From the IMG/VR virus record IMGVR_UViG_3300013132_000023, positions 73,178-137,177 of that record: DNA of 64,000 nt; one strand, written 5' to 3'. Source of the DNA: a virus. Both the position numbers and the translations under genes were made by a program. The notes beneath the pieces were generated by a model. The model saw only the letters and a list, made by a program, of their open reading frames with translations, ran no database searches and was not told the origin of the DNA. The number at the start of each line of letters is the position of its first letter. The stretch's first letter is position 1. This document shows positions 35,526-51,717 of the stretch, in pieces.

Positions 35526-36626
35526 TTATTCCTCTACTAGAACCTTTCCGTGTTCCTCTTTAACTTGTTCTAAAACAGATTTCCAAAGCTTGTCTTCAAT
35601 GTCCTTGCCGTCTAAGAGAGCAAAGACATATCCAATTTCGGAATTCAAAGCATTAGCCTGTAGCCACAGAGCATAGTCCTTTCGAGGACGGTTCTCGCCT
35701 ACCTCGGTAATCATACGACTCAAGCAGTCGCTTGCTCGCGTATACAGACCGTCTCGTAACCCTTGGACGTATGCACGAATGTCGTCGAAGTCACAAGCAA
35801 TAGCCGCAGGCAACTGCTTAACCGTTACTCCGTACTCTCGACCACGAATCAGGTCAATGACTCCCTTGGGAGACAGATAGTTCAATAGACGATGGATACG
35901 TAGATACGTAGGGCTCTTGATCTTCACGCGAAGCCCATTTTCAAAGCGAGCAACATATCCTTCGGAGTTTTCTTCAAAAGGAATTTCGCTACGCAGGTCA
36001 ATATTGTATCGCTTAGGGCGACGGAAGCCGCACATAGATGCGATTTGGTCTACGCGACGAGGATGCCACTCAACCCCATTGTGCTCGAACATTGCAAGCA
36101 AAACGAGTTCGCGTACACCGTTATAATCTACGACGATGCGATTTTCGGGATAGATAATCTCAAACACGGGCGTACAGTCTACAGGTAAATGGTTTAACCA
36201 ATATCTAGGACGCATGGTTTCTTCGTTACCAAACCATTCGTTCATAATCTTGGTACCATTAAGAGCTTGTTCCGATTCCATGCTACCCGGCGTGGCTAGT
36301 TTCCACTGGTTGTCACGCACGTAGCCAATGCCGCAGCTTCCGTCTGCCTTTTCATAGACTTCGACGGATTCCTTCCACGGTAGGTTAGCGATAGTAGTTT
36401 CAGGGCATTCTCCCAAGTTGAAAAACTTAGGAAACGGACGAGCTACGACAGTGCCGTCTGTTCGAAAGATGATACCACGAGCCTGACGATTAACTTCGTT
36501 CCACAGACCACTAATGTGAGTATCTTGGGTGTACTTGAAGATAGTCAGGTCGCCACTTGACGAAGCCGATACTCGACCAGCTTCGACTTCTTTCCAAAGC
36601 TTGTTAAGTAGAATAGGGTCTTTCAT
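35526..36626 (-). CDS. T4 Rnl1-like RNA ligase
   Basis: ARGIIF, PFPKFFN, EKADGS, FEII, EGYV, RVKIK. Confidence 0.92.
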   Translation of the reverse strand: MKDPILLNKLWKEVEAGRVSASSSGDLTIFKYTQDTHISGLWNEVNRQARGIIFRTDGTVVARPFPKFFNLGECPETTIANLPWKESVEVYEKADGSCGIGYVRDNQWKLATPGSMESEQALNGTKIMNEWFGNEETMRPRYWLNHLPVDCTPVFEIIYPENRIVVDYNGVRELVLLAMFEHNGVEWHPRRVDQIASMCGFRRPKRYNIDLRSEIPFEENSEGYVARFENGLRVKIKSPTYLRIHRLLNYLSPKGVIDLIRGREYGVTVKQLPAAIACDFDDIRAYVQGLRDGLYTRASDCLSRMITEVGENRPRKDYALWLQANALNSEIGYVFALLDGKDIEDKLWKSVLEQVKEEHGKVLVEE

Positions 36627-36880
36627 GATAACTCTTCAATTTGCCAGTCGCTCTCTGCGTGTGGAATAAGTACGTCGCGTCCAGGTACTAAATGCGAATA
36701 GATACTACTTCCTAACCACTTTAGAGACGGTTTTTGTGCGTATATCTTCCCTTTTTTAGAAAGGTTAGACTTTGTGTATACACAGTCCTCAACGCGTACG
36801 TGACGCGAAGGACAATAGTACAATCCTGTTGGAATGTGTTTAATACGATACGTTTTCAAGTTTGTTGATCTTCGCCACAA
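36623..36880 (-). CDS. Hypothetical protein
   Basis: YRIKHIPTGLYY phage-type small ORF; start uncertain. Confidence 0.5.
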   Translation of the reverse strand: MWRRSTNLKTYRIKHIPTGLYYCPSRHVRVEDCVYTKSNLSKKGKIYAQKPSLKWLGSSIYSHLVPGRDVLIPHAESDWQIEELS

Positions 36881-37098
36881 TCATCACAGATGGTGTCGTC
36901 AGCGGCTACGTGCCCACCACACTTATTACAAACATAACACAGTGGCAACCTCATGAGTGCAAAATCAGTATCTTCACAAATGTAGCAGCCTTTTTTGTAA
37001 ACGATAACCTTGCTTCGCCAGTCAAATTTATTGGGAGTCGTTTGAGCCTCTTGTTTGCCTTTTTCAAGCATCCAATATGCCGGATCATTATACTTCAT
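36856..37098 (-). CDS. Small Cys-rich protein
   Basis: CYIC, C..C..CGGH, CDDC. Confidence 0.55.
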   Translation of the reverse strand: MKYNDPAYWMLEKGKQEAQTTPNKFDWRSKVIVYKKGCYICEDTDFALMRLPLCYVCNKCGGHVAADDTICDDCGEDQQT

Positions 37099-37337
37099 GG
37101 CCACAGACAAATGACTTTTGTAAATGTTTCGCGTTCACCGGCTTCTAGACAACATTCATCGTCTGTGTGTGAATTGCTATAATAGCTGTCTATATGATAT
37201 TCACGTAAATTTTTCACCGTACCAGCGTCTACGTTAGATACTTTGCAATAACCATTACCTTCTGAATCTTGACTCATGATGATTTCCGTTTCCGGATCAA
37301 GCCTAGACAGAATTTTCTGTAGTTCTTTTACTTTCAT
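37095..37337 (-). CDS. Hypothetical phage protein
   Basis: MKVKEL...L, D.EGN, LWP end. Confidence 0.6.
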   Translation of the reverse strand: MKVKELQKILSRLDPETEIIMSQDSEGNGYCKVSNVDAGTVKNLREYHIDSYYSNSHTDDECCLEAGERETFTKVICLWP

Positions 37338-37339
37338 AT

Positions 37340-37570
37340 TTAAGTTCCAAATCCAATAAAAGCTCTGCCATCGTGGCAGAGTTCGTCAATGGATCCCATA
37401 GTGTCCGTGTAGTATACTCGCACTCCGTGCGAAATCAAGTTCTTTTTTAGCAAATCTTGAATGACCTCTTCTGCTGCGTTCGTGATAGACATACCACCAA
37501 TCGCAGGACTGAGATCTTCAATCCAAATTGCGTTTTTTTCTTGACGTACTACGTCGTAAGCAAATCTCAT
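37340..37570 (-). CDS. Hypothetical phage protein
   Basis: SITNAAEEVI, YYTDT.G. Confidence 0.6.
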   Translation of the reverse strand: MRFAYDVVRQEKNAIWIEDLSPAIGGMSITNAAEEVIQDLLKKNLISHGVRVYYTDTMGSIDELCHDGRAFIGFGT

Positions 37571-37739
37571 TTAGTTCCTCACGCCACTTGTTAGCTATTT
37601 TGTTCGCTTCTTTAAGCGAATTACAGGTTGCTCTATACAATACCCAATTGTTATCCAGTATATGTACGACCCTTACTTCGCAATCATAAACTTCTATTCT
37701 TAGTACGCTAGCAAGATTTTTTATCATCCTATTTTTCAT
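37518..37739 (-). CDS. Hypothetical protein
   Basis: Coupled to cca stop. Confidence 0.45.
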   Translation of the reverse strand: MKNRMIKNLASVLRIEVYDCEVRVVHILDNNWVLYRATCNSLKEANKIANKWREELNEICLRRSTSRKKRNLD

Positions 37740-38983
37740 TGACTCCCCTTAAGGGCATGAACGCGAGCTTGCTCCATTTTCTGAGCGATCTTTTCACCGT
37801 TCTTTAAATGAGCAAACTGGTGTCCTTTGACTTGTCTAATGACTGCGGCGGCTTCAAGCAAACGATCCCCTTGTGGGTACGGATTGTTTGCGTGCAGCGG
37901 ACCCCGGCCTCGTGCGTCAGCCTTTGCGGCCATGACTACGCGACGAGCTACCAAATCACCCTGTAAGGTTCCAAGTCGCCCTAGCAAGCGAACTTTTGTC
38001 GTTGCCTTTAGCTCTTCGAACTTGTGGATATTCAGATGTTCTCGCGACGCAAGGACGCCAATCTTACGATGCAGACTAGGAGTCCGCAAGCGATCACACA
38101 TAGCATTAACCAAAGGTACTCCAAGAGCTTCATGATTGTAGTGGTGTGGGAGATTATGGTCGTCCGTAACTGCCTTTCCAAGGTCATGCACGAGAGCAGC
38201 AAACATCGTTTCGTCGTCTGCACCCATGTCGCGAGCACGATCAATGACTTGCAACGTATGCACGTAAGCGTCACCTTCCGGATGATGCTTTTCTGGTTGA
38301 ATGCGACCCTTTAGGGCGGCGATTTCTGGGAACGTAATTTCTAAAGCACCCAGCCTATCGAGTGCTTCAAAGAAACAAGACGGTCGTTGCGTACGAAGGG
38401 CCTTTTCAAGCTCGCCCCATACGCGTTCGCCCGGTTCATTAGCTAATTCAGCCAATGCTGGCCGAGCAGCTTCAATCAATTCATCACTGATTGACATGTC
38501 TAATTGAGCAGCGAAACGAGCGGCACGCAAGATACGCACCGGATCTTCTCCGAAGTGGTTGCCAACTGGACGCAGCACCTTGTTTTGAAGATCTCTAATT
38601 CCGCCGTAAAGGTCAATGATTTCTTCGGTGAATGGATCTAAAGCCATTGCGTTAATCGTGAGGTCACGACGACGCAAATCTTCATCAAGTCCTACGTTAT
38701 TCGTATCGCATTCGAAAGCATGGTAGCCCCCGCCAATCTTGCGTTCTTTTCTAGCAAGAGCGACTTCAATCCCGTTCACCAAGAATACAGGGAACTTTGC
38801 ACCAACGACGCTATCGAAACCAGCCGCATGGAACTGGTTTTCCGATACGCCAATTACTACGATATCCACGTCCTTAGGATTACGCCCTAGGAGTAGGTCT
38901 CGTACGTAACCCCCGACAATATAGGGGCAACCCCCCATCGCTTTGATGCGATGGCAGAGTTCTAGATGCTTACGATGCTTCAT
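37736..38983 (-). CDS. cca: Multifunctional CCA-adding enzyme (with HD domain)
   Basis: VGGYVRD, DVD, DLRRRDLTINAMA, EDPVRILRAARF, HHPEGD..HT, LVHDLGK. Confidence 0.92.
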   Translation of the reverse strand: MKHRKHLELCHRIKAMGGCPYIVGGYVRDLLLGRNPKDVDIVVIGVSENQFHAAGFDSVVGAKFPVFLVNGIEVALARKERKIGGGYHAFECDTNNVGLDEDLRRRDLTINAMALDPFTEEIIDLYGGIRDLQNKVLRPVGNHFGEDPVRILRAARFAAQLDMSISDELIEAARPALAELANEPGERVWGELEKALRTQRPSCFFEALDRLGALEITFPEIAALKGRIQPEKHHPEGDAYVHTLQVIDRARDMGADDETMFAALVHDLGKAVTDDHNLPHHYNHEALGVPLVNAMCDRLRTPSLHRKIGVLASREHLNIHKFEELKATTKVRLLGRLGTLQGDLVARRVVMAAKADARGRGPLHANNPYPQGDRLLEAAAVIRQVKGHQFAHLKNGEKIAQKMEQARVHALKGSQ

Positions 38984-38997
38984 ACCGACAGTATACC

Positions 38998-39330
38998 CTA
39001 TCGCAGGTCTTTTGTGTGCTTAAAACGGCTGCATTTTGTAACAAAAGCTACCAGGATCGGCACGTTTGAGGCAAAATCTTCCGGTTGCCAGAAACACATA
39101 GCCTTAACATGTTCTTGTTCTAGAATATGTTCTACAATTCCCGGCTGTTGACCTTGGTCTTCATGTTCGTCGTCTACGTGACTAGCAAATGGATCATCTG
39201 TACCTTGTAAATCCAAAATGTTTGGCATTACGGGGTGGACAATCTTTTCACTGGCCTTTTCTTGCACGCAAATACCGTATTGGCACTTCCAACACAGACT
39301 TTCTTCTGCCTTCGGCATTTCGCTATTCAT
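38998..39330 (-). CDS. Hypothetical protein
   Basis: CWKC...C...C. Confidence 0.55.
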   Translation of the reverse strand: MNSEMPKAEESLCWKCQYGICVQEKASEKIVHPVMPNILDLQGTDDPFASHVDDEHEDQGQQPGIVEHILEQEHVKAMCFWQPEDFASNVPILVAFVTKCSRFKHTKDLR

Positions 39331-39778
39331 TTGGGAAGATACTCGTGTTCGTCCACTCGTGTTCGTCCAAGTGTGGTTGGTAGTCGCTAATGTGACGTTC
39401 GATAACACTCAAGGGGACGTTATGCTTGTTGCGACCAAGCAAGACATTAGCGTTCCAAGGACGTGGAGTGCAAATCATTTCGGTCTTGTAACCCAATTCA
39501 CCAGCAAGCTTAAAATAGGGCTCCATTTCCCAATGCTTGATGAAAGTATTTGACACAATCACAAGCGGTACGCCATTTTCCATTTGCGTACGAACTTGCT
39601 CCTGATTCCAGGCGTGTGCCCTAGGGAGTTTCTTGGGATCAAACGAGTAGCCGTCTTGAGTCATGAAATACTGATCCGTTTCATGAACACTAGAACGAAC
39701 ACCGTCTCTTTGTCCCAGGTGACGTGCAATCGTACTCTTACCGGAACCGCTTGGGCCTCTCAAAAGAATCAGTTTCAT
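39323..39778 (-). CDS. AAA_33 / N4BP2-like polynucleotide kinase
   Basis: LRGPSGSGKST, ETDQYF, AHAWNQ, VSNTF, RNKHNVP. Confidence 0.85.
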   Translation of the reverse strand: MKLILLRGPSGSGKSTIARHLGQRDGVRSSVHETDQYFMTQDGYSFDPKKLPRAHAWNQEQVRTQMENGVPLVIVSNTFIKHWEMEPYFKLAGELGYKTEMICTPRPWNANVLLGRNKHNVPLSVIERHISDYQPHLDEHEWTNTSIFPNE

Positions 39779-39817
39779 CTGTTGCTAGTATAGCACGATC
39801 CACAAGCCGGTCAAGCA

Positions 39818-39922
39818 AAAACTCGTCTCTCCGAGAAGTCACGCCTAAATCTTATTTGGGAGTACGGCTACTCCTGATAGGCTCGTTAGCCTTCTACACC
39901 CTGGCGTTCGGATAGAACTCGC
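39818..39922 (-). ncRNA. Candidate structured RNA downstream of ssb
   Basis: CGCC/GGCG closing helix, hairpins GGC-taacga-GCC and GGAGTA-gccg-TACTCC, 3' CTCG-gagaga-CGAG then U-tract. Confidence 0.4.
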
Positions 39923-39924
39923 GA

Positions 39925-40350
39925 CTAGAAAAGCTTTCCGTCGTCTGAATCAGCGGTTCTAGGCTTGCTGCCCTTACTGCCAGCCTTCGTCATTTTTTCT
40001 TCTTGACCAGATTCTTCGGCACGTCCGTTGCCGCCACTAACGAACGAGAAGCCATCGAAAGTATTAAGGCGAACTTCCAGCTTCGAACGCTTTTCGCCAG
40101 TCTTCTTGTCTTCCCAGCGGTTCTGGGTCAATTGACCATTGACGATGATTTGCTTACCTTTCTTGAAATGTGCAGCGATGGTAGTAACTTGCTTACCAAA
40201 CGCAACACAGTCTACAAAGGTCGTTGTTTCTTTGTCGCCAAACCCGTTGTTAATCGCAATGGTAAAACGAGCGACGTTATTTTCTTCTCCCATAATCTTG
40301 GGATCGTCAACGAGATTGCCCTGTAAGGCTACAACATTCAAATTACTCAT
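39925..40350 (-). CDS. ssb: Single-stranded DNA-binding protein
   Basis: N.V.L.GNL..DP, FTIAIN, FVDCVAFGK, KG.QI.V.GQL...RW, acidic C-tail ending LF. Confidence 0.92.
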   Translation of the reverse strand: MSNLNVVALQGNLVDDPKIMGEENNVARFTIAINNGFGDKETTTFVDCVAFGKQVTTIAAHFKKGKQIIVNGQLTQNRWEDKKTGEKRSKLEVRLNTFDGFSFVSGGNGRAEESGQEEKMTKAGSKGSKPRTADSDDGKLF

Positions 40351-40378
40351 AGTATTTCCTTTTGTTTCGTTACTTGGT

Positions 40379-40744
40379 TCAAACGCCAGCAATGGCTCGT
40401 TTTTCAAAAATGACTTCTTGTAGAGCACTTTCACGAGTTAGGGTGCCTGCATCAATACGTTCCTTTTGTTCTTGGGAAACGCGGAAACGACGAGCTACGC
40501 CAACGGCAGCAGCCACGCGTTCTTCAAAATTCTCAAGCGTCAGGCCGTCTTCAAGATACACCGAGTCAGGAATTTCGGGACGACTACGCTTTTGAAGTTC
40601 TGCAAGTCCTCCGCGTTCCAAGAACTCCTGGAAAGCTTGTTCGCGAGTTAGTGTTCCAGCGTCCATACGAGCCTTCTGCTCTTTTGAAATGCGGAATCGG
40701 AAGCCAGTACGTTCGGTGAAGTTGTTGAGTGTGAGATCGTTCAT
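40379..40744 (-). CDS. Two-repeat protein of unknown function
   Basis: LTL.NF.ER...RFR.S.EQK.R.DAGTLTRE.A.QE twice. Confidence 0.75.
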   Translation of the reverse strand: MNDLTLNNFTERTGFRFRISKEQKARMDAGTLTREQAFQEFLERGGLAELQKRSRPEIPDSVYLEDGLTLENFEERVAAAVGVARRFRVSQEQKERIDAGTLTRESALQEVIFEKRAIAGV

Positions 40745-40886
40745 GATGCTTATGTTATGACGGGTTAGGTTTGTTATGTAAGGTGTTTTTTCTGAATTTC
40801 TGGTTGTCGTAAATTGTTGTTTTGTCCTAATTTAGAATCAGGGAAGGTATGCGTTCTGGACTTGACCTACACAGAACATTGGATGT

Positions 40887-41096
40887 TTATAGAGTTTCAT
40901 TTGGATCGATTGTGAAAATCGCCTCCGGGCACTTTAGCGATTCGCTATCGTCACCCTCGTAGTAACAAACGCCATAATCAAGGCTGTAACTAATGGTGGC
41001 ATTTGGGTGCTTTTTAACGATCTTTTGAAGACGTTCTATCAGATTTGATATCTTGCCTTCAAAGTCATAGGCAGTGTATGTTTCTAAACGTCCCAT
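40887..41096 (-). CDS. Hypothetical protein
   Basis: Coupled to ligase stop. Confidence 0.5.
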   Translation of the reverse strand: MGRLETYTAYDFEGKISNLIERLQKIVKKHPNATISYSLDYGVCYYEGDDSESLKCPEAIFTIDPNETL

Positions 41097-42211
41097 TAGT
41101 GATACTCCGTTCCGTCCTTGCGAGTTAGATAGTCGGGCGAAATGATCTTGAAAACCATACGCTTAGGGTGCGGGTCTAGTTCTCCCTTGCTCCACGTCAA
41201 TTCGTCGTACATAGGACGAACGACAATCCCTTCTCGAATGTGTCCATCTTCAAGGGTGGTGTTTCCTTGTGCCATTTCTAGCAGTGTTTCGTATGACAAC
41301 ATGCCACCACTCAAGAACGGCACAAGCGGCAATCTTACCTTATTGCAAATGTGAGTTAGTGCATGATGATTGAGGTATTCACCATTGATAGCAATGTCGA
41401 ATACACGATATCCCTTCTTGTTCTTGGCCCCGTAGTGCAGGTCTTGGACACCAGCACCATAGATTTCGCCAAAAACGATTAGTGAGTTCAGTGGACAACC
41501 AGTTCCGCCCTCTGGATTTTCAATTGCATCGATAGCCCACTCAAGTAGCTTATCAAGTGCTTCGGCGTGTAGCTCGAAAGGAAGACCGTAGACTCCACAG
41601 TCGTTAGGGTCACGTTGCGTACGATGTGTACCTACAACCTTTTCAAGGTAATCACTCATGCCTCCGTTTTCAGGATCAGGAGTACGTACCCAGCCAACAC
41701 GGCTATTTGTACCGTGGAGCTTTTCAGTGACAACCAACGGTATGCTGTAATTAAGAGCTTCTGGGAAGTTACGAAGATTCTGCATATCCGTGTAATGATG
41801 GAACAACGGATGCTCTCTTCGCATTTGACCAGCAGACATACCTAAGGGCGGCGGGGGCGGTTCGTACTTTTCGATACCGTAGTGAGCAGCTAGGCTCGCA
41901 CCCGGTTCGGCTCCGCTGTCGTTAGGAACGAGGAAACCAAAGCTTGCAATACTACGCAAACGAGCGGCCCGGACGCGTCCCATGTCACTGTCCTTCTTAA
42001 AGGACAGGTATTGAGTCACGCCCCACTTATCGGCCCAATCGCGGGGAACCATAACTTCCGGAGGAATGTGTACTACAATGTCTCCAACCTTGTAGTTACC
42101 TTTTCCAGACACAATGTCCCAGCCGCTTACGCGGCAGATTTCAAGACGATCAGCATTGGGATGCGGATTGATAGCGGTCACAACGACCGGAGTGATGATT
42201 AGTTCGCTCAT
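41096..42211 (-). CDS. RNA ligase, DRB0094 family
   Basis: N-terminal HPNADRLE OB domain, TEKLHGTN, FGEIYG.GVQ, FDI, REGIV, FKIIS..YL. Confidence 0.9.
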   Translation of the reverse strand: MSELIITPVVVTAINPHPNADRLEICRVSGWDIVSGKGNYKVGDIVVHIPPEVMVPRDWADKWGVTQYLSFKKDSDMGRVRAARLRSIASFGFLVPNDSGAEPGASLAAHYGIEKYEPPPPPLGMSAGQMRREHPLFHHYTDMQNLRNFPEALNYSIPLVVTEKLHGTNSRVGWVRTPDPENGGMSDYLEKVVGTHRTQRDPNDCGVYGLPFELHAEALDKLLEWAIDAIENPEGGTGCPLNSLIVFGEIYGAGVQDLHYGAKNKKGYRVFDIAINGEYLNHHALTHICNKVRLPLVPFLSGGMLSYETLLEMAQGNTTLEDGHIREGIVVRPMYDELTWSKGELDPHPKRMVFKIISPDYLTRKDGTEYH

Positions 42212-44068: not shown

Positions 44069-44157
44069 TGGTCCGCTCGGCAGGATTCGAACCTGCGATG
44101 GTGATTACTCACTCCAGATTAAAAGTCTGGCCCCTTCGGCCTCTCGGACACGAGCGG
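44069..44157 (-). tRNA. tRNA-Lys(TTT) with long variable arm
   Basis: CCAGA-CTTTTAA-TCTGG then V-arm GTGA-gtaa-TCAC; ACCA. Confidence 0.9.
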
Positions 44158-44377: not shown

Positions 44378-44466
44378 TGGTGCATCCGCCAGGATTCGAA
44401 CCTGGGTTGGGTTTTCACCGTCCGATTAAGAGTCGGATGCCTTCGGCCAACTCGGCACACGGATGC
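44378..44466 (-). tRNA. tRNA-Lys(CTT) with long variable arm
   Basis: TCCGA-CTCTTAA-TCGGA then V-arm GGT-gaaa-ACC; ACCA. Confidence 0.9.
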
Positions 44467-46402: not shown

Positions 46403-46446
46403 ATGATCTATTGTACCACACGTTTGTTCGTTGTCAAGAAAAAGTT

Positions 46447-47306: not shown

Positions 47307-47393
47307 TGGATTGTGTTTAGGTTGAGGTTCAAGTTTAGTAGTAACAACCACAGTATATCATGTCTCCTGGAGTTGTCAAGTGAAAATTAACGT

Positions 47394-47836: not shown

Positions 47837-47928
47837 TGGTCCGCAGGGTGGGATTCGAACCCACGTATTTCGCATATCAGGCGATGACTGATCATAAATC
47901 AGGGGGCTTACCGCTAACCGACCTGCGG
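47837..47928 (-). tRNA. tRNA-Ile(TAT) with long variable arm
   Basis: CTGA-TTTATGA-TCAG, V-arm TCGC...GCGA, acceptor CCGCAGG/CCTGCGG, ACCA. Confidence 0.82.
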
Positions 47929-48098: not shown

Positions 48099-48191
48099 TG
48101 GCTCCGAGAGTAGGACTCGAACCTACGGTGGGGGAATTTCTCCCCTTCGCATTAACAGTGCGATGCGTGCTACCAACTCCGCAACCTCGGA
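48099..48191 (-). tRNA. tRNA-Asn(GTT) with long variable arm
   Basis: TCGCA-CTGTTAA-TGCGA, V-arm GGGGA-gaaat-TCCCC; U1-A72, G73, CCA. Confidence 0.9.
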
Positions 48192-49594: not shown

Positions 49595-49834
49595 TTATTC
49601 GATTTCAAGAACTTCGCCACGCTTACCAGCTTCATGAGCTTCCTTCAAAAGCTCAACGATACCGTAACAATCGTTAAAATTCCTGCATAAATTATTGTCT
49701 TCTATTTCTCCGTTGTTTATGATGGAGAAATACAAGACAATATCATAAACAACAAATACCCGTTTGTCGTTGATGTAGATTTCGATACAAGAAGTTCCAT
49801 CTTCGCGATCTGTAATCTTTTCTTTGATTTTCAT
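49595..49834 (-). CDS. Hypothetical protein
   Basis: Coupled ORF, 79 aa. Confidence 0.55.
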   Translation of the reverse strand: MKIKEKITDREDGTSCIEIYINDKRVFVVYDIVLYFSIINNGEIEDNNLCRNFNDCYGIVELLKEAHEAGKRGEVLEIE

Positions 49835-50097: not shown

Positions 50098-50288
50098 GAT
50101 CTTTTCAAGATTTCATCTAGCTTGTCGAATGAAGGCACGCTTGAATTATGCCAACGATAACACAATGGACAGTAGTACGGATATCTATCGCAGTCCGCTT
50201 TTTGTGCGACTTGAAAAGAAGCGTATGCTCTTTTACTAAGACACATCCTGTGCTTCCTGAGTTTCTTGCGTTGACGATTCGAAAGCAT
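50094..50288 (-). CDS. Small C2H-type protein
   Basis: C..KR.Y, Y.CPLC..WH. Confidence 0.55.
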   Translation of the reverse strand: MLSNRQRKKLRKHRMCLSKRAYASFQVAQKADCDRYPYYCPLCYRWHNSSVPSFDKLDEILKRS

Positions 50289-50330
50289 GTTGTTAGTATA
50301 TCCCTTGATGTCTAAGTTGTCAAGGAAAAA

Positions 50331-50406
50331 TGGAGCCGCCGATGGGACTCGAACCCATAACCCCCTGATTACAAATCAGGAGCACCACCAATTGTGCTAC
50401 AGCGGC
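50331..50406 (-). tRNA. tRNA-Thr(TGT)
   Basis: CCTGA-TTTGTAA-TCAGG; TCCA. Confidence 0.94.
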
Positions 50407-50409
50407 CTA

Positions 50410-50484
50410 TGGTCCTGGGTACGGGTATCGATCCCGTTTCTAGTCCTTGAAAGGGACTTATCCTAGCCACTAGACGAACCCAGG
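50410..50484 (-). tRNA. tRNA-Glu(TTC)
   Basis: AGTCC-CTTTCAA-GGACT; T-loop ATCGATA; ACCA. Confidence 0.9.
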
Positions 50485-50489
50485 TTGAA

Positions 50490-50810
50490 TGGTGGACACG
50501 GAGCGGTTTTTGTCATTGTGTTAAAATCCTAGATCGTCTGGACCTTCAAGCTTTGCCTTACCACAGCAAGATGCTTGAAGACTATGAGGGGAAACCCCGC
50601 AAAATCATTAATATTTTGCGAGCACTCAAATTGTCCGTAATCACTTCCAGATACGTTCATCATCCCACTAGGTTACCCGGCTAATTACTTCCGAGTGTTT
50701 TGGTAGCTTAAAAGAGGGTGTACTGTAGCCTATACATGCATGTTGTACACCATGGCGAGCAGTATCAAGCACGGAATTGTACTGCATAATCCGCTCTAAG
50801 CCTCTCCGTG
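50490..50810 (-). ncRNA. Unassigned ~320-nt structured RNA ending TCCACCA
   Basis: ORF-free; 5' CACGG/GAGCGG pair with 3' CCGCTCCGTG; several internal helices; lies between tRNA-Ala and tRNA-Glu. Confidence 0.6.
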
Positions 50811-50843
50811 AAGCGTTGTTCATTCTTCTCTTTCAAGCTATTC

Positions 50844-50919
50844 TGGTGGAGAGCATGGGAATTGAACCCACCCCACGGACCTTGCAAAGGTCTGTCGCCA
50901 CCTTGGTACATGGCCCCCC
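50844..50919 (-). tRNA. tRNA-Ala(TGC)
   Basis: G3-U70, loop TTTGCAA, ACCA. Confidence 0.88.
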
Positions 50920-50921
50920 AT

Positions 50922-51120
50922 AACAGCGATCACTTTAAGATTAACCCCTACAACTCACGCCCAGCATTACCTGATAGTAGGGATCTCAAAAATCGCTGTT
51001 GTTTTATGGCCAGTCGTGTGGCAGACTGGTAAGCCTCGTTGTCTTTCTCTTTACAACGCAAGAGAGCCGAACTGCCCATGTGGCCAATCCCCTATCTCGT
51101 CGGCAGAAGCGTAGGGATAC
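50922..51120 (-). ncRNA. Candidate structured RNA(s) between tRNA-Gly and tRNA-Ala
   Basis: Rod AACAGCGAT...ATCGCTGTT; hairpins CCAGTC/GACTGG and TCTCTT/AAGAGA; possible pseudoknot. Confidence 0.45.
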
Positions 51121-51666: not shown

Positions 51667-51717
51667 ACCACTATTATACACCACTTTCGGTGTTCTGCAA
51701 CCAAAAATCTGGAAAAA

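Follow-up and report, generated by a model that had tools for sequence, protein, structure and literature searches.

A structured spacer with tRNA-like ends in a phage tRNA array: two probable modules without detectable relatives

Does the long gap between tRNA-Ala and tRNA-Glu in a phage tRNA array hold an RNA of its own? We addressed this question in a window of 64,000 nucleotides (nt), the whole stretch of DNA analysed, which forms the final 64 kb of the 137,177-bp IMG/VR virus record IMGVR_UViG_3300013132_000023 (completeness estimate 87%). Lake-water metagenomes contain near-identical pieces of this phage sequence. ARAGORN places 24 tRNA genes on the minus strand at 42.8-51.3 kb of the window, downstream of rIIA- and rIIB-like genes, and the spacer under study is the 359-nt gap at 50485-50843 on the same strand. 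The initial annotation had read most of this gap, 50490-50810, as one RNA of ~320 nt with a tRNA-style 3' end. We find instead a structured element on the tRNA strand that has tRNA-like ends, two modules and no detectable relatives; the spacer probably holds two folded modules of ~140 nt rather than one 320-nt RNA. Our favoured, still tentative reading is that these are two spacer RNAs matured by the tRNA-processing machinery, analogous to, and not homologous with, RNAC and RNAD of phage T4.

Folded in full, the 359-nt spacer has a minimum free energy (MFE) of -104.2 kcal/mol and contains two large domains, modules A and B. Module A (139 nt, 50701-50839, minus strand) is a four-way junction with three hairpin arms. 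It is closed by a 12-bp helix, P1, in which AGCUUGAAAGAG (50828-50839, minus strand) pairs with CUCUUUUAAGCU (50705-50716, minus strand), and ACCA follows at 50704-50701. The P1 5' strand, which lies outside the initially annotated 50490-50810, is paired with a probability of 0.96-1.0 in three sequence contexts. The helix can also be counted as 13 bp, joining UAGCUUGAAAGAG (50840-50828) with CUCUUUUAAGCUA (50716-50704), with the inner 12 pairs again at 0.96-1.0. U50840 is then either a weak thirteenth pair (U50840-A50704, probability 0.61) or position -1; with this outer U-A pair open, module A reads U(-1), 12-bp helix, A-CCA. The last arm of the module, a 7-bp GGUGUAC/GUACACC helix (50751-50717), abuts the P1 3' strand, and the 4-nt leader GAAU (50840-50843, minus strand) connects the CCA of tRNA-Ala to the module. 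Module A thus presents the layout of an RNase P-type substrate: a GAAU leader, a 12-bp helix and an ACCA tail.

Module B (147 nt, 50490-50636, minus strand) consists of four hairpins and a 20-nt single strand. Its closing helices, GGACA (50636-50632) with UGUCC (50498-50494) and GAGUG (50627-50623) with CGCUC (50505-50501), have pair probabilities of 0.70-0.95 in three sequence contexts, and its 3' end, ACCA (50493-50490), comes directly after the closing helix. Five nucleotides, UUCAA (50485-50489, minus strand), then lead to tRNA-Glu(UUC) (50410-50484, minus strand; found by ARAGORN and Rfam) and resemble the UUCAC between tRNA-Pro and tRNA-Lys. Upstream of module B, two GGAAGURAUUA repeats form a middle hairpin (GUAAUUA/UGAUUAC; 50637-50688, minus strand) that is insignificant by itself (50637-50700, z -0.16, 77 of 200 shuffles as good). 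The linker AAACACUCGGAA (50689-50700, minus strand; repeat family D9) separates this hairpin from module A, and its start, AAACAC, is similar to the A-rich AWACA flanks downstream of genuine tRNA CCA ends in the array. The RNase P-type layout is present in module B as a 5+5-bp helix and ACCA, with the base at position -1 paired inside the middle hairpin. The two modules show no sequence likeness to each other.

Taken separately, both modules are exceptional in fold strength, and the fold is strand-specific. On the tRNA strand, module A reaches an MFE of -46.5 kcal/mol (z -4.05) and module B -44.1 kcal/mol (z -3.23), each with 0 of 200 shuffles as good, whereas the plus strand gives z -0.77 for A (41 of 200 shuffles as good) and z -1.37 for B (19 of 200). 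An unbiased 140-nt sliding scan peaks exactly at 50840-50701 (z -4.19); windows shifted by 20 nt score +0.30 and -1.70. Over the whole spacer, z is -2.69 on the tRNA strand and -1.06 on the opposite strand.

The position of the ACCA ends is also unusual. ACCA occurs only twice in the block, at 50701 and 50490, each time directly after a large folded domain. Two domains followed by (N)CCA appeared in 0 of 400 dinucleotide shuffles, and one such domain in 15 of 400. The window's 11 spacers contain 19 exterior domains of at least 40 nt, and only modules A and B are followed by (N)CCA; among the 14 domains in the spacers of two related loci, L002 and L013, the single (N)CCA case is the 3' half of a real tRNA found by Rfam. 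The flanks match the array as well, with U at -1 of module A, AAACAC after A and UUCAA after B, where genuine tRNA 3' flanks in the array read AAACAU, AAACAAU and UUCAC.

All the motifs on which the initial annotation was built are present on the minus strand. Direct reading places CCGCTCCGTGTCCACCA at the 3' end of the spacer (50506-50490), 5 nt before tRNA-Glu, and finds both CACGGAG (50810-50804) and GAGCGG (50796-50791). All the listed internal helices were located: GCAGTA/TACTGC, GGTGTAC/GTACACC, CGCAAAAT/ATTTTGCG, GGGG/CCCC and CTTCAAGC/GCTTGAAG. GGAAGTRATTA does occur twice, 44 nt apart, although chance alone could supply this 11-nt direct repeat, which contains one mismatch (~0.5 expected by our own estimate). 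The reported TCCACCA terminus resolves into UGUCC, paired with GGACA, and then ACCA, so that no seven-base tail is left. Of the coordinates first given, the 3' end at 50490 holds, and upstream the element extends to 50840.

Could the block belong to a known RNA family? We searched 50485-50843 with Rfam models for tmRNA, RNase P RNA, group I intron, GOLLD and ROOL and with the other 4227 families, and no family matched at the gathering score, at E ≤ 10 or at E ≤ 1, except for the tail of a permuted-tmRNA hit. ARAGORN and Rfam agree with the initial annotation that T-loop, transfer-messenger RNA (tmRNA) and RNase P RNA are absent. The tmRNA models (RF00023 and RF04321) were rejected, as their best hits of 11.7, 7.9 and 15.7 bits fall below the 47-bit gathering score; these weak hits sit on the T-arm and body of the adjacent tRNA-Ala, outside the block. 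ARAGORN -m reports 0 tmRNA genes. The ...UCCACCA 3' end does resemble tmRNA and tRNA-Ala ends, but unlike tmRNA the block has no T-arm or UUCRA loop, no G3:U70 (looked for in module B) and no tag frame. tmRNA degradation tags usually end in ...AA and a stop, and three-frame translation of the block shows no frame with this ending. A Y RNA was also considered and dropped, the genome being without a Ro (TROVE) protein.

A tRNA or pseudo-tRNA was likewise rejected. Within the block, the Rfam tRNA model has no match at E ≤ 10, and ARAGORN has none with introns of up to 400 nt, with a lowered threshold or with mitochondrial models. A model of the tRNA-Ala family described below (R1) gives only 1.9 bits (E 7.3), at 50490-50529, and in Smith-Waterman alignments against 91 phage tRNAs the block is equalled by 30 of 100 and 42 of 100 shuffles. 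With so low an R1 score and alignments no better than shuffles, a relic tRNA cannot be demonstrated.

How might such modules be made? The spacer would be transcribed within a Tyr-Gly-Ala-Glu-Thr tRNA precursor, since a promoter-like box lies upstream, the next promoter lies past tRNA-Thr and none lies inside. The upstream site, TTGCAG-16 nt-TATAAT (51673-51700, minus strand), precedes the first tRNAs and, judged from its sequence, may be the start of the spacer-carrying precursor. It is missing from our promoter scan list because its -35 hexamer matches at only 3 of 6 positions; its GTGTATAATAG box recurs upstream of the L002 array. The next clear promoter is at 50323-50295, downstream of tRNA-Thr, and the promoter scan returned no promoter-like or terminator-like site within the spacer block.

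In the precursor, the spacer would fold into the autonomous modules A and B, the hairpin at 50688-50637 possibly being a 5' extension of B. Each module, with its terminal helix of ~12 layers, then ACCA and then a tRNA-like flank, could act as an acceptor-end mimic. RNase P would cleave 5' of each module's helix and 3' exonucleases would trim the modules back to CCA, after which host or phage CCA-adding enzyme could repair the 3' ends; such processing would release two stable RNAs of ~140 nt. The modules would suit RNase P because each has a helix as long as stacked acceptor and T stems and, 3' of it, a CCA tail. The 3' RCCA tail matters for RNase P recognition, and 3' trimming is expected to halt at the CC adjoining the helix. 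As to function, the modules may serve only as punctuation or insulation of the precursor, or they may be trans-acting or decoy RNAs.

The window also encodes enzymes that could act on such ends. A phage CCA-adding enzyme (37736-38983, minus strand) with PolyA_pol head, RNA-binding and HD domains (phrog_2244 at 3.1e-109; Pfam PF01743, PF12627 and PF01966) is a candidate keeper of the modules' ACCA ends. Near the array, on the same strand, are an Rnl1-type RNA ligase (35526-36626), a second RNA ligase (41096-42211) and a small AAA_33 kinase-like protein (39323-39778). Together with the CCA-adding enzyme they constitute a tRNA-end maintenance gene set at 35526-42211 (minus strand), 8-15 kb from the spacer. 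One could go further and view the modules as phage-made acceptor-end mimics, which would serve as decoys or sponges, diverting host enzymes or defence toxins from the tRNA 3' ends and acceptor stems that these attack or modify, or would themselves be charged, with ends kept by the phage CCA-adding enzyme. We regard this extension as quite improbable. A literature search found no description of acceptor-mimic decoy RNAs in phage tRNA arrays, which is not proof that there is none.

The closest parallel we know is found in T4, where non-tRNA RNAs in a tRNA cluster are already established as a kind to which the modules may, by analogy, belong. T4 rnaD (119 nt) and rnaC (139 nt) follow tRNA-Arg with spacings of 1 and 6 nt; here the outer spacings are 4 and 5 nt, tRNA-like as in T4. 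Both cases place two tandem non-tRNA RNAs, predicted ones in our phage, in a phage tRNA cluster on the tRNA strand. The sizes are similar, and T4 rnaC is strongly structured (z -4.57), as is module A (z -4.05). The resemblance, so far as this analogy reaches, is functional and not one of sequence: Smith-Waterman scores of the modules against T4 rnaC and rnaD are at or below shuffle means. T4 rnaC carries a T-arm-like hairpin, CCGGG-UUCGAAU-CCCGG, near its 3' end and has no encoded CCA, unlike the modules, which encode ACCA and have no T-loop. The roles of RNAC (species 1) and RNAD (species 2) are given as unknown (PMC3014915; PMC9697503).

Other systems share single traits with the modules. 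Bacterial RNase P also cuts RNAs other than tRNAs, among them hairpin model substrates, pre-4.5S RNA, phage M3 RNA and the P1/P7 C4 antisense RNA (PMC11143913). Their common trait is a helix with a single-stranded 3' ...CCA tail, to which module A offers a counterpart in its 12 bp, U(-1) and A-CCA; there is no homology between them and the modules, by Rfam. Plant mitochondrial t-elements are reported to be tRNA-like structures that mark transcript ends (PMC1920247). The shared idea would be a tRNA-like fold used as a processing signal in a longer transcript, but t-elements belong to another kingdom and machinery and lie beside mRNAs, whereas the modules sit between tRNAs.

Several observations weigh against two processed RNAs, beginning with the distribution of the block. 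None of the 19 related virus records examined (G001-G019) contains it. In the closest relative (G001, locus L002; rIIB 69% identical) the same atypical tRNA-Ala is followed by a 305-nt spacer, which aligns to the block with a Smith-Waterman score of 16, no better than shuffles (17.9 +/- 1.9; 280 of 300 score the same or higher). In G002 (locus L013) a suppressor tRNA comes 127 nt after the atypical tRNA-Ala. A model of module A (R2), built from its single sequence entered twice, finds only itself in G000-G003 and T4. Comparison with 16 further records that carry the same tRNA-Ala gave only 14-21-nt chance matches, and the spacers of relatives contain no analogous domain with an NCCA end. The structural evidence, too, has its limits. 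Other array spacers reach z -2.3 to -3.6, which makes the whole block unexceptional, and an open reading frame (ORF) at 49601-49820 is equally structured (z to -5.7). The module z-scores are flattered because the boundaries were taken from the fold itself, and only module A's ACCA is independent (~15/400 by chance) because the 3' ACCA prompted the selection of the region. Neither module has a T-loop, and all the evidence for the two RNAs comes from a single sequence.

Wider searches gave the same picture. Blastn of the block against 50,697 phage records found no homologue, a 20-mer of its 3' end had no match in IMG/VR, and patterns of its arms and hairpins found no homologue in IMG/VR or GTDB; the lone GTDB pattern hit was discarded as an unrelated high-GC terminator-like hairpin in a Gaiellaceae metagenome-assembled genome. 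The homologues that could have corroborated the initially annotated RNA thus did not appear in the related, phage, IMG/VR or GTDB sequences, and covariation is not demonstrable. Relatives approached through the rIIB neighbour amounted to 1 and then 3 viral loci, and 2 metagenome contigs ended short of the tRNA array. Among the sequencing runs that hold the stretch, none is recorded as RNA; four DNA runs yielded only identical low-depth pieces of the same phage and unrelated tRNA matches, with no variants over the block.

These points feed directly into the alternatives. The block could be a lineage-specific spacer without a product, whose hairpins are neutral or prevent tRNA misfolding and whose ACCA ends are coincidental or the remains of decayed tRNAs; we consider this possible, if rather unlikely. 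It would account for the lack of conservation in every search, for the similar fold z-scores of other array spacers and for the high variability of the position after the atypical tRNA-Ala, where other phages have anything from 7 nt to over 1000 nt, and a tRNA gene lost to decay would be expected to leave just such ACCA ends and array-like flanks. However, the body of such a tRNA is untraceable by R1, Smith-Waterman, ARAGORN and Rfam alike, decay creates neither a 12-13-bp helix spanning 137 nt nor a strand-specific fold, and no shuffle of 400 reproduced the pair of domains with CCA. Module A by itself might instead be a miniature inverted-repeat-type DNA insertion, with its CCA copied from the tRNA-Ala 3' end. 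Its 13-bp terminal arms, TAGCTTGAAAGAG and TAGCTTAAAAGAG, differ by one mismatch, the flanking 6-bp CCAGAA/CCAAAA, a putative target duplication, agree at 5 of 6 positions (chance ~0.005 at fixed length, our own estimate), excision would leave ...CCACCA-AAACAC, a typical array junction, and the insert is missing from relatives. Yet the 137-kb genome holds no second copy or solo arm, and exact-arm patterns found no arm pair in IMG/VR or in 185,579 GTDB genomes, a search that would miss diverged copies because it demanded exact arms. DNA-level repeats alone also do not explain why the tRNA strand folds so much better (z -4.05 vs -0.77), and we judge an insertion doubtful.

Two further readings fare worse. 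The initial annotation proposed a single, possibly aminoacylated RNA of ~320 nt (50810-50490) in which CACGG and GAGCGG at the 5' end pair with CCGCUCCGUG in an acceptor/T-like stack ahead of a UCCACCA tail. If only 50490-50812 is folded, the closing helix CACGGAG/CUCCGUG does appear in the minimum-energy fold (z -1.93, 4 of 100 shuffles as good). It is lost because 31 upstream bases are included in the full spacer: there, the probability of all 7 pairs is 0.0 in three contexts, and forcing the helix costs 8.8 kcal/mol (-95.4 against -104.2 for the best full-spacer fold). The stack that was to close one long RNA is therefore not part of the preferred structure, which in addition has no T-arm and no tmRNA or other Rfam match. 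Alanine charging requires G-U at position 3:70; in the preferred fold of module B this pair is A-U, with U70 pairing to A, and aminoacylation is unsupported because 3:70 is A-U rather than G-U. What survives from this proposal is an unassigned, strand-specific structure in a tRNA operon, with ACCA ends and tRNA-like flanks; the single ~320-nt RNA itself is very improbable. The spacer could also encode small proteins, of 51 amino acids (aa) (50668-50823, minus strand) and/or 44 aa (50529-50663, minus strand). Contrary to what had been stated, the block is not strictly ORF-free: both ORFs share the strand of the tRNAs, begin with ATG and between them cover most of its length, and small ORFs between tRNAs are common in phage annotations. 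A missing Shine-Dalgarno sequence is uninformative here because this phage's genes do without them. Coding support, however, is lacking for both. They are absent from 15 billion predicted proteins, in which the neighbouring 88-aa and 79-aa ORFs are present; 0 of the 2 has a PHROG hit at E ≤ 1; and their codon log-odds, 0.04 and 0.06 per codon, do not reach the 0.174 that marks the 5th percentile for 50-codon pieces of real genes. A search of 1.84 billion representatives, made for the 51-aa ORF only, returned one borderline hit (E 5.7e-4), which stems from a repeated 26-aa motif in an unrelated 1115-aa immunoglobulin-like protein. Neither ORF has a counterpart in L002, and small proteins are a reading to which we give hardly any weight.

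Should the modules prove to be real RNAs, they would add to the T4 pair a second, unrelated case of stable non-tRNA RNAs in a phage tRNA operon with tRNA-like end maturation, and such RNAs would then look less like a peculiarity of T4 than like a general strategy. Were the acceptor-mimic reading also true, it would supply a function for a class of tRNA-cluster RNA unexplained in T4 for decades. The link to tRNA ends is explicit, through the encoded ACCA ends and the nearby CCA-adding enzyme, two RNA ligases and kinase, and because of this the processing and decoy ideas are bench-testable. If the modules are not real, the locus is a cautionary case, in which a plausible closing helix vanished once 31 flanking bases were added to the fold.

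The upstream neighbour of the spacer is itself unusual. It is a tRNA, as first annotated, but an atypical one that the Rfam tRNA model does not report; the best Rfam match is tmRNA, at 15.7 bits. This tRNA-Ala(UGC) lies directly upstream of the spacer (50844-50919, minus strand; the ARAGORN call is one base off), combines G3:U70 in its acceptor stem (GGGGGGC/GCUCUCC) with A73 and a CCA encoded in the gene, and scores 100.1 bits with model R1. It belongs to a widespread atypical phage tRNA-Ala family whose members include L002:11815-11889, L013:1501-1576 (minus strand), L004:1502-1577, L005:1504-1580, L006:1505-1582 and copies in L042-L047. The family has an invariant D region, CAUGUWCCAAGGNGGCGA, without a canonical D stem, a 7-bp anticodon stem and a 3-nt variable region, and G3:U70 is present in 16 of 17 distinct sequences. 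The model has 26 matches, from 25 sources, with pairing in 96.9% of cells. Covariation is strong: double changes occur at 17 of 19 pairs among the 17 distinct sequences, and 0 of 500 shuffles reach as high. The family is found in lake phages, Vibrio phage EniLVp02, Mycobacterium Reyvirus phages and Pseudomonas Otagovirus; the Reyvirus copies are annotated as tRNA-OTHER or not at all, and G008 carries a second copy with a GGC anticodon. The suppressor tRNA of G002 (L013:1298-1373, minus strand) has a CUA anticodon, that of an amber suppressor, and is labelled Pyl by ARAGORN.

Strong folds occur elsewhere in the region. The spacer between tRNA-Gly and the atypical tRNA-Ala (50920-51120, minus strand) is 201 nt long here and 14 nt in L002, with z -3.6; within it, a 79-nt irregular hairpin (51000-50922) reaches z -5.85 (0 of 200 shuffles as good) and has no CCA end. 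The windows that fold most strongly in the region (z to -5.7) owe this to a 19-nt inverted repeat at 49693-49742, inside the predicted 79-aa ORF (pair I3), whose arms are 95% complementary and 12 nt apart.

Further features of the array and its surroundings concern tRNA shape and gene starts. Bacteria normally reserve long variable arms for Leu, Ser and Tyr tRNAs. Here, long stem-loop variable arms are seen in tRNA-Asn(GUU, 93 nt; 48099-48191), tRNA-Ile(UAU, 92 nt; 47837-47928), tRNA-Lys(UUU, 89 nt; 44069-44157) and tRNA-Lys(CUU, 89 nt; 44378-44466), all on the minus strand, and one may speculate that these arms are linked to evasion of tRNA-cutting defences. A Shine-Dalgarno sequence is recognisable upstream of 0 of the 12 gene starts inspected (for example 52740, 54662 and 38983), which may mean that the host does not depend on such sequences. 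Finally, a repeated box, TTTTTCTTGACAAC (family D8), directly follows three tRNAs, at 50295-50332, 46430-46446 and 47372-47388 (minus strand). The box at 50323-50295 contains a near-consensus promoter, TTGACA-17 nt-TATACT (11 of 12 positions), whose -10 box is separated by 6 nt from the start codon (ATG) of the ORF at 50288; this short distance suggests leaderless or near-leaderless small-gene cassettes in the array.

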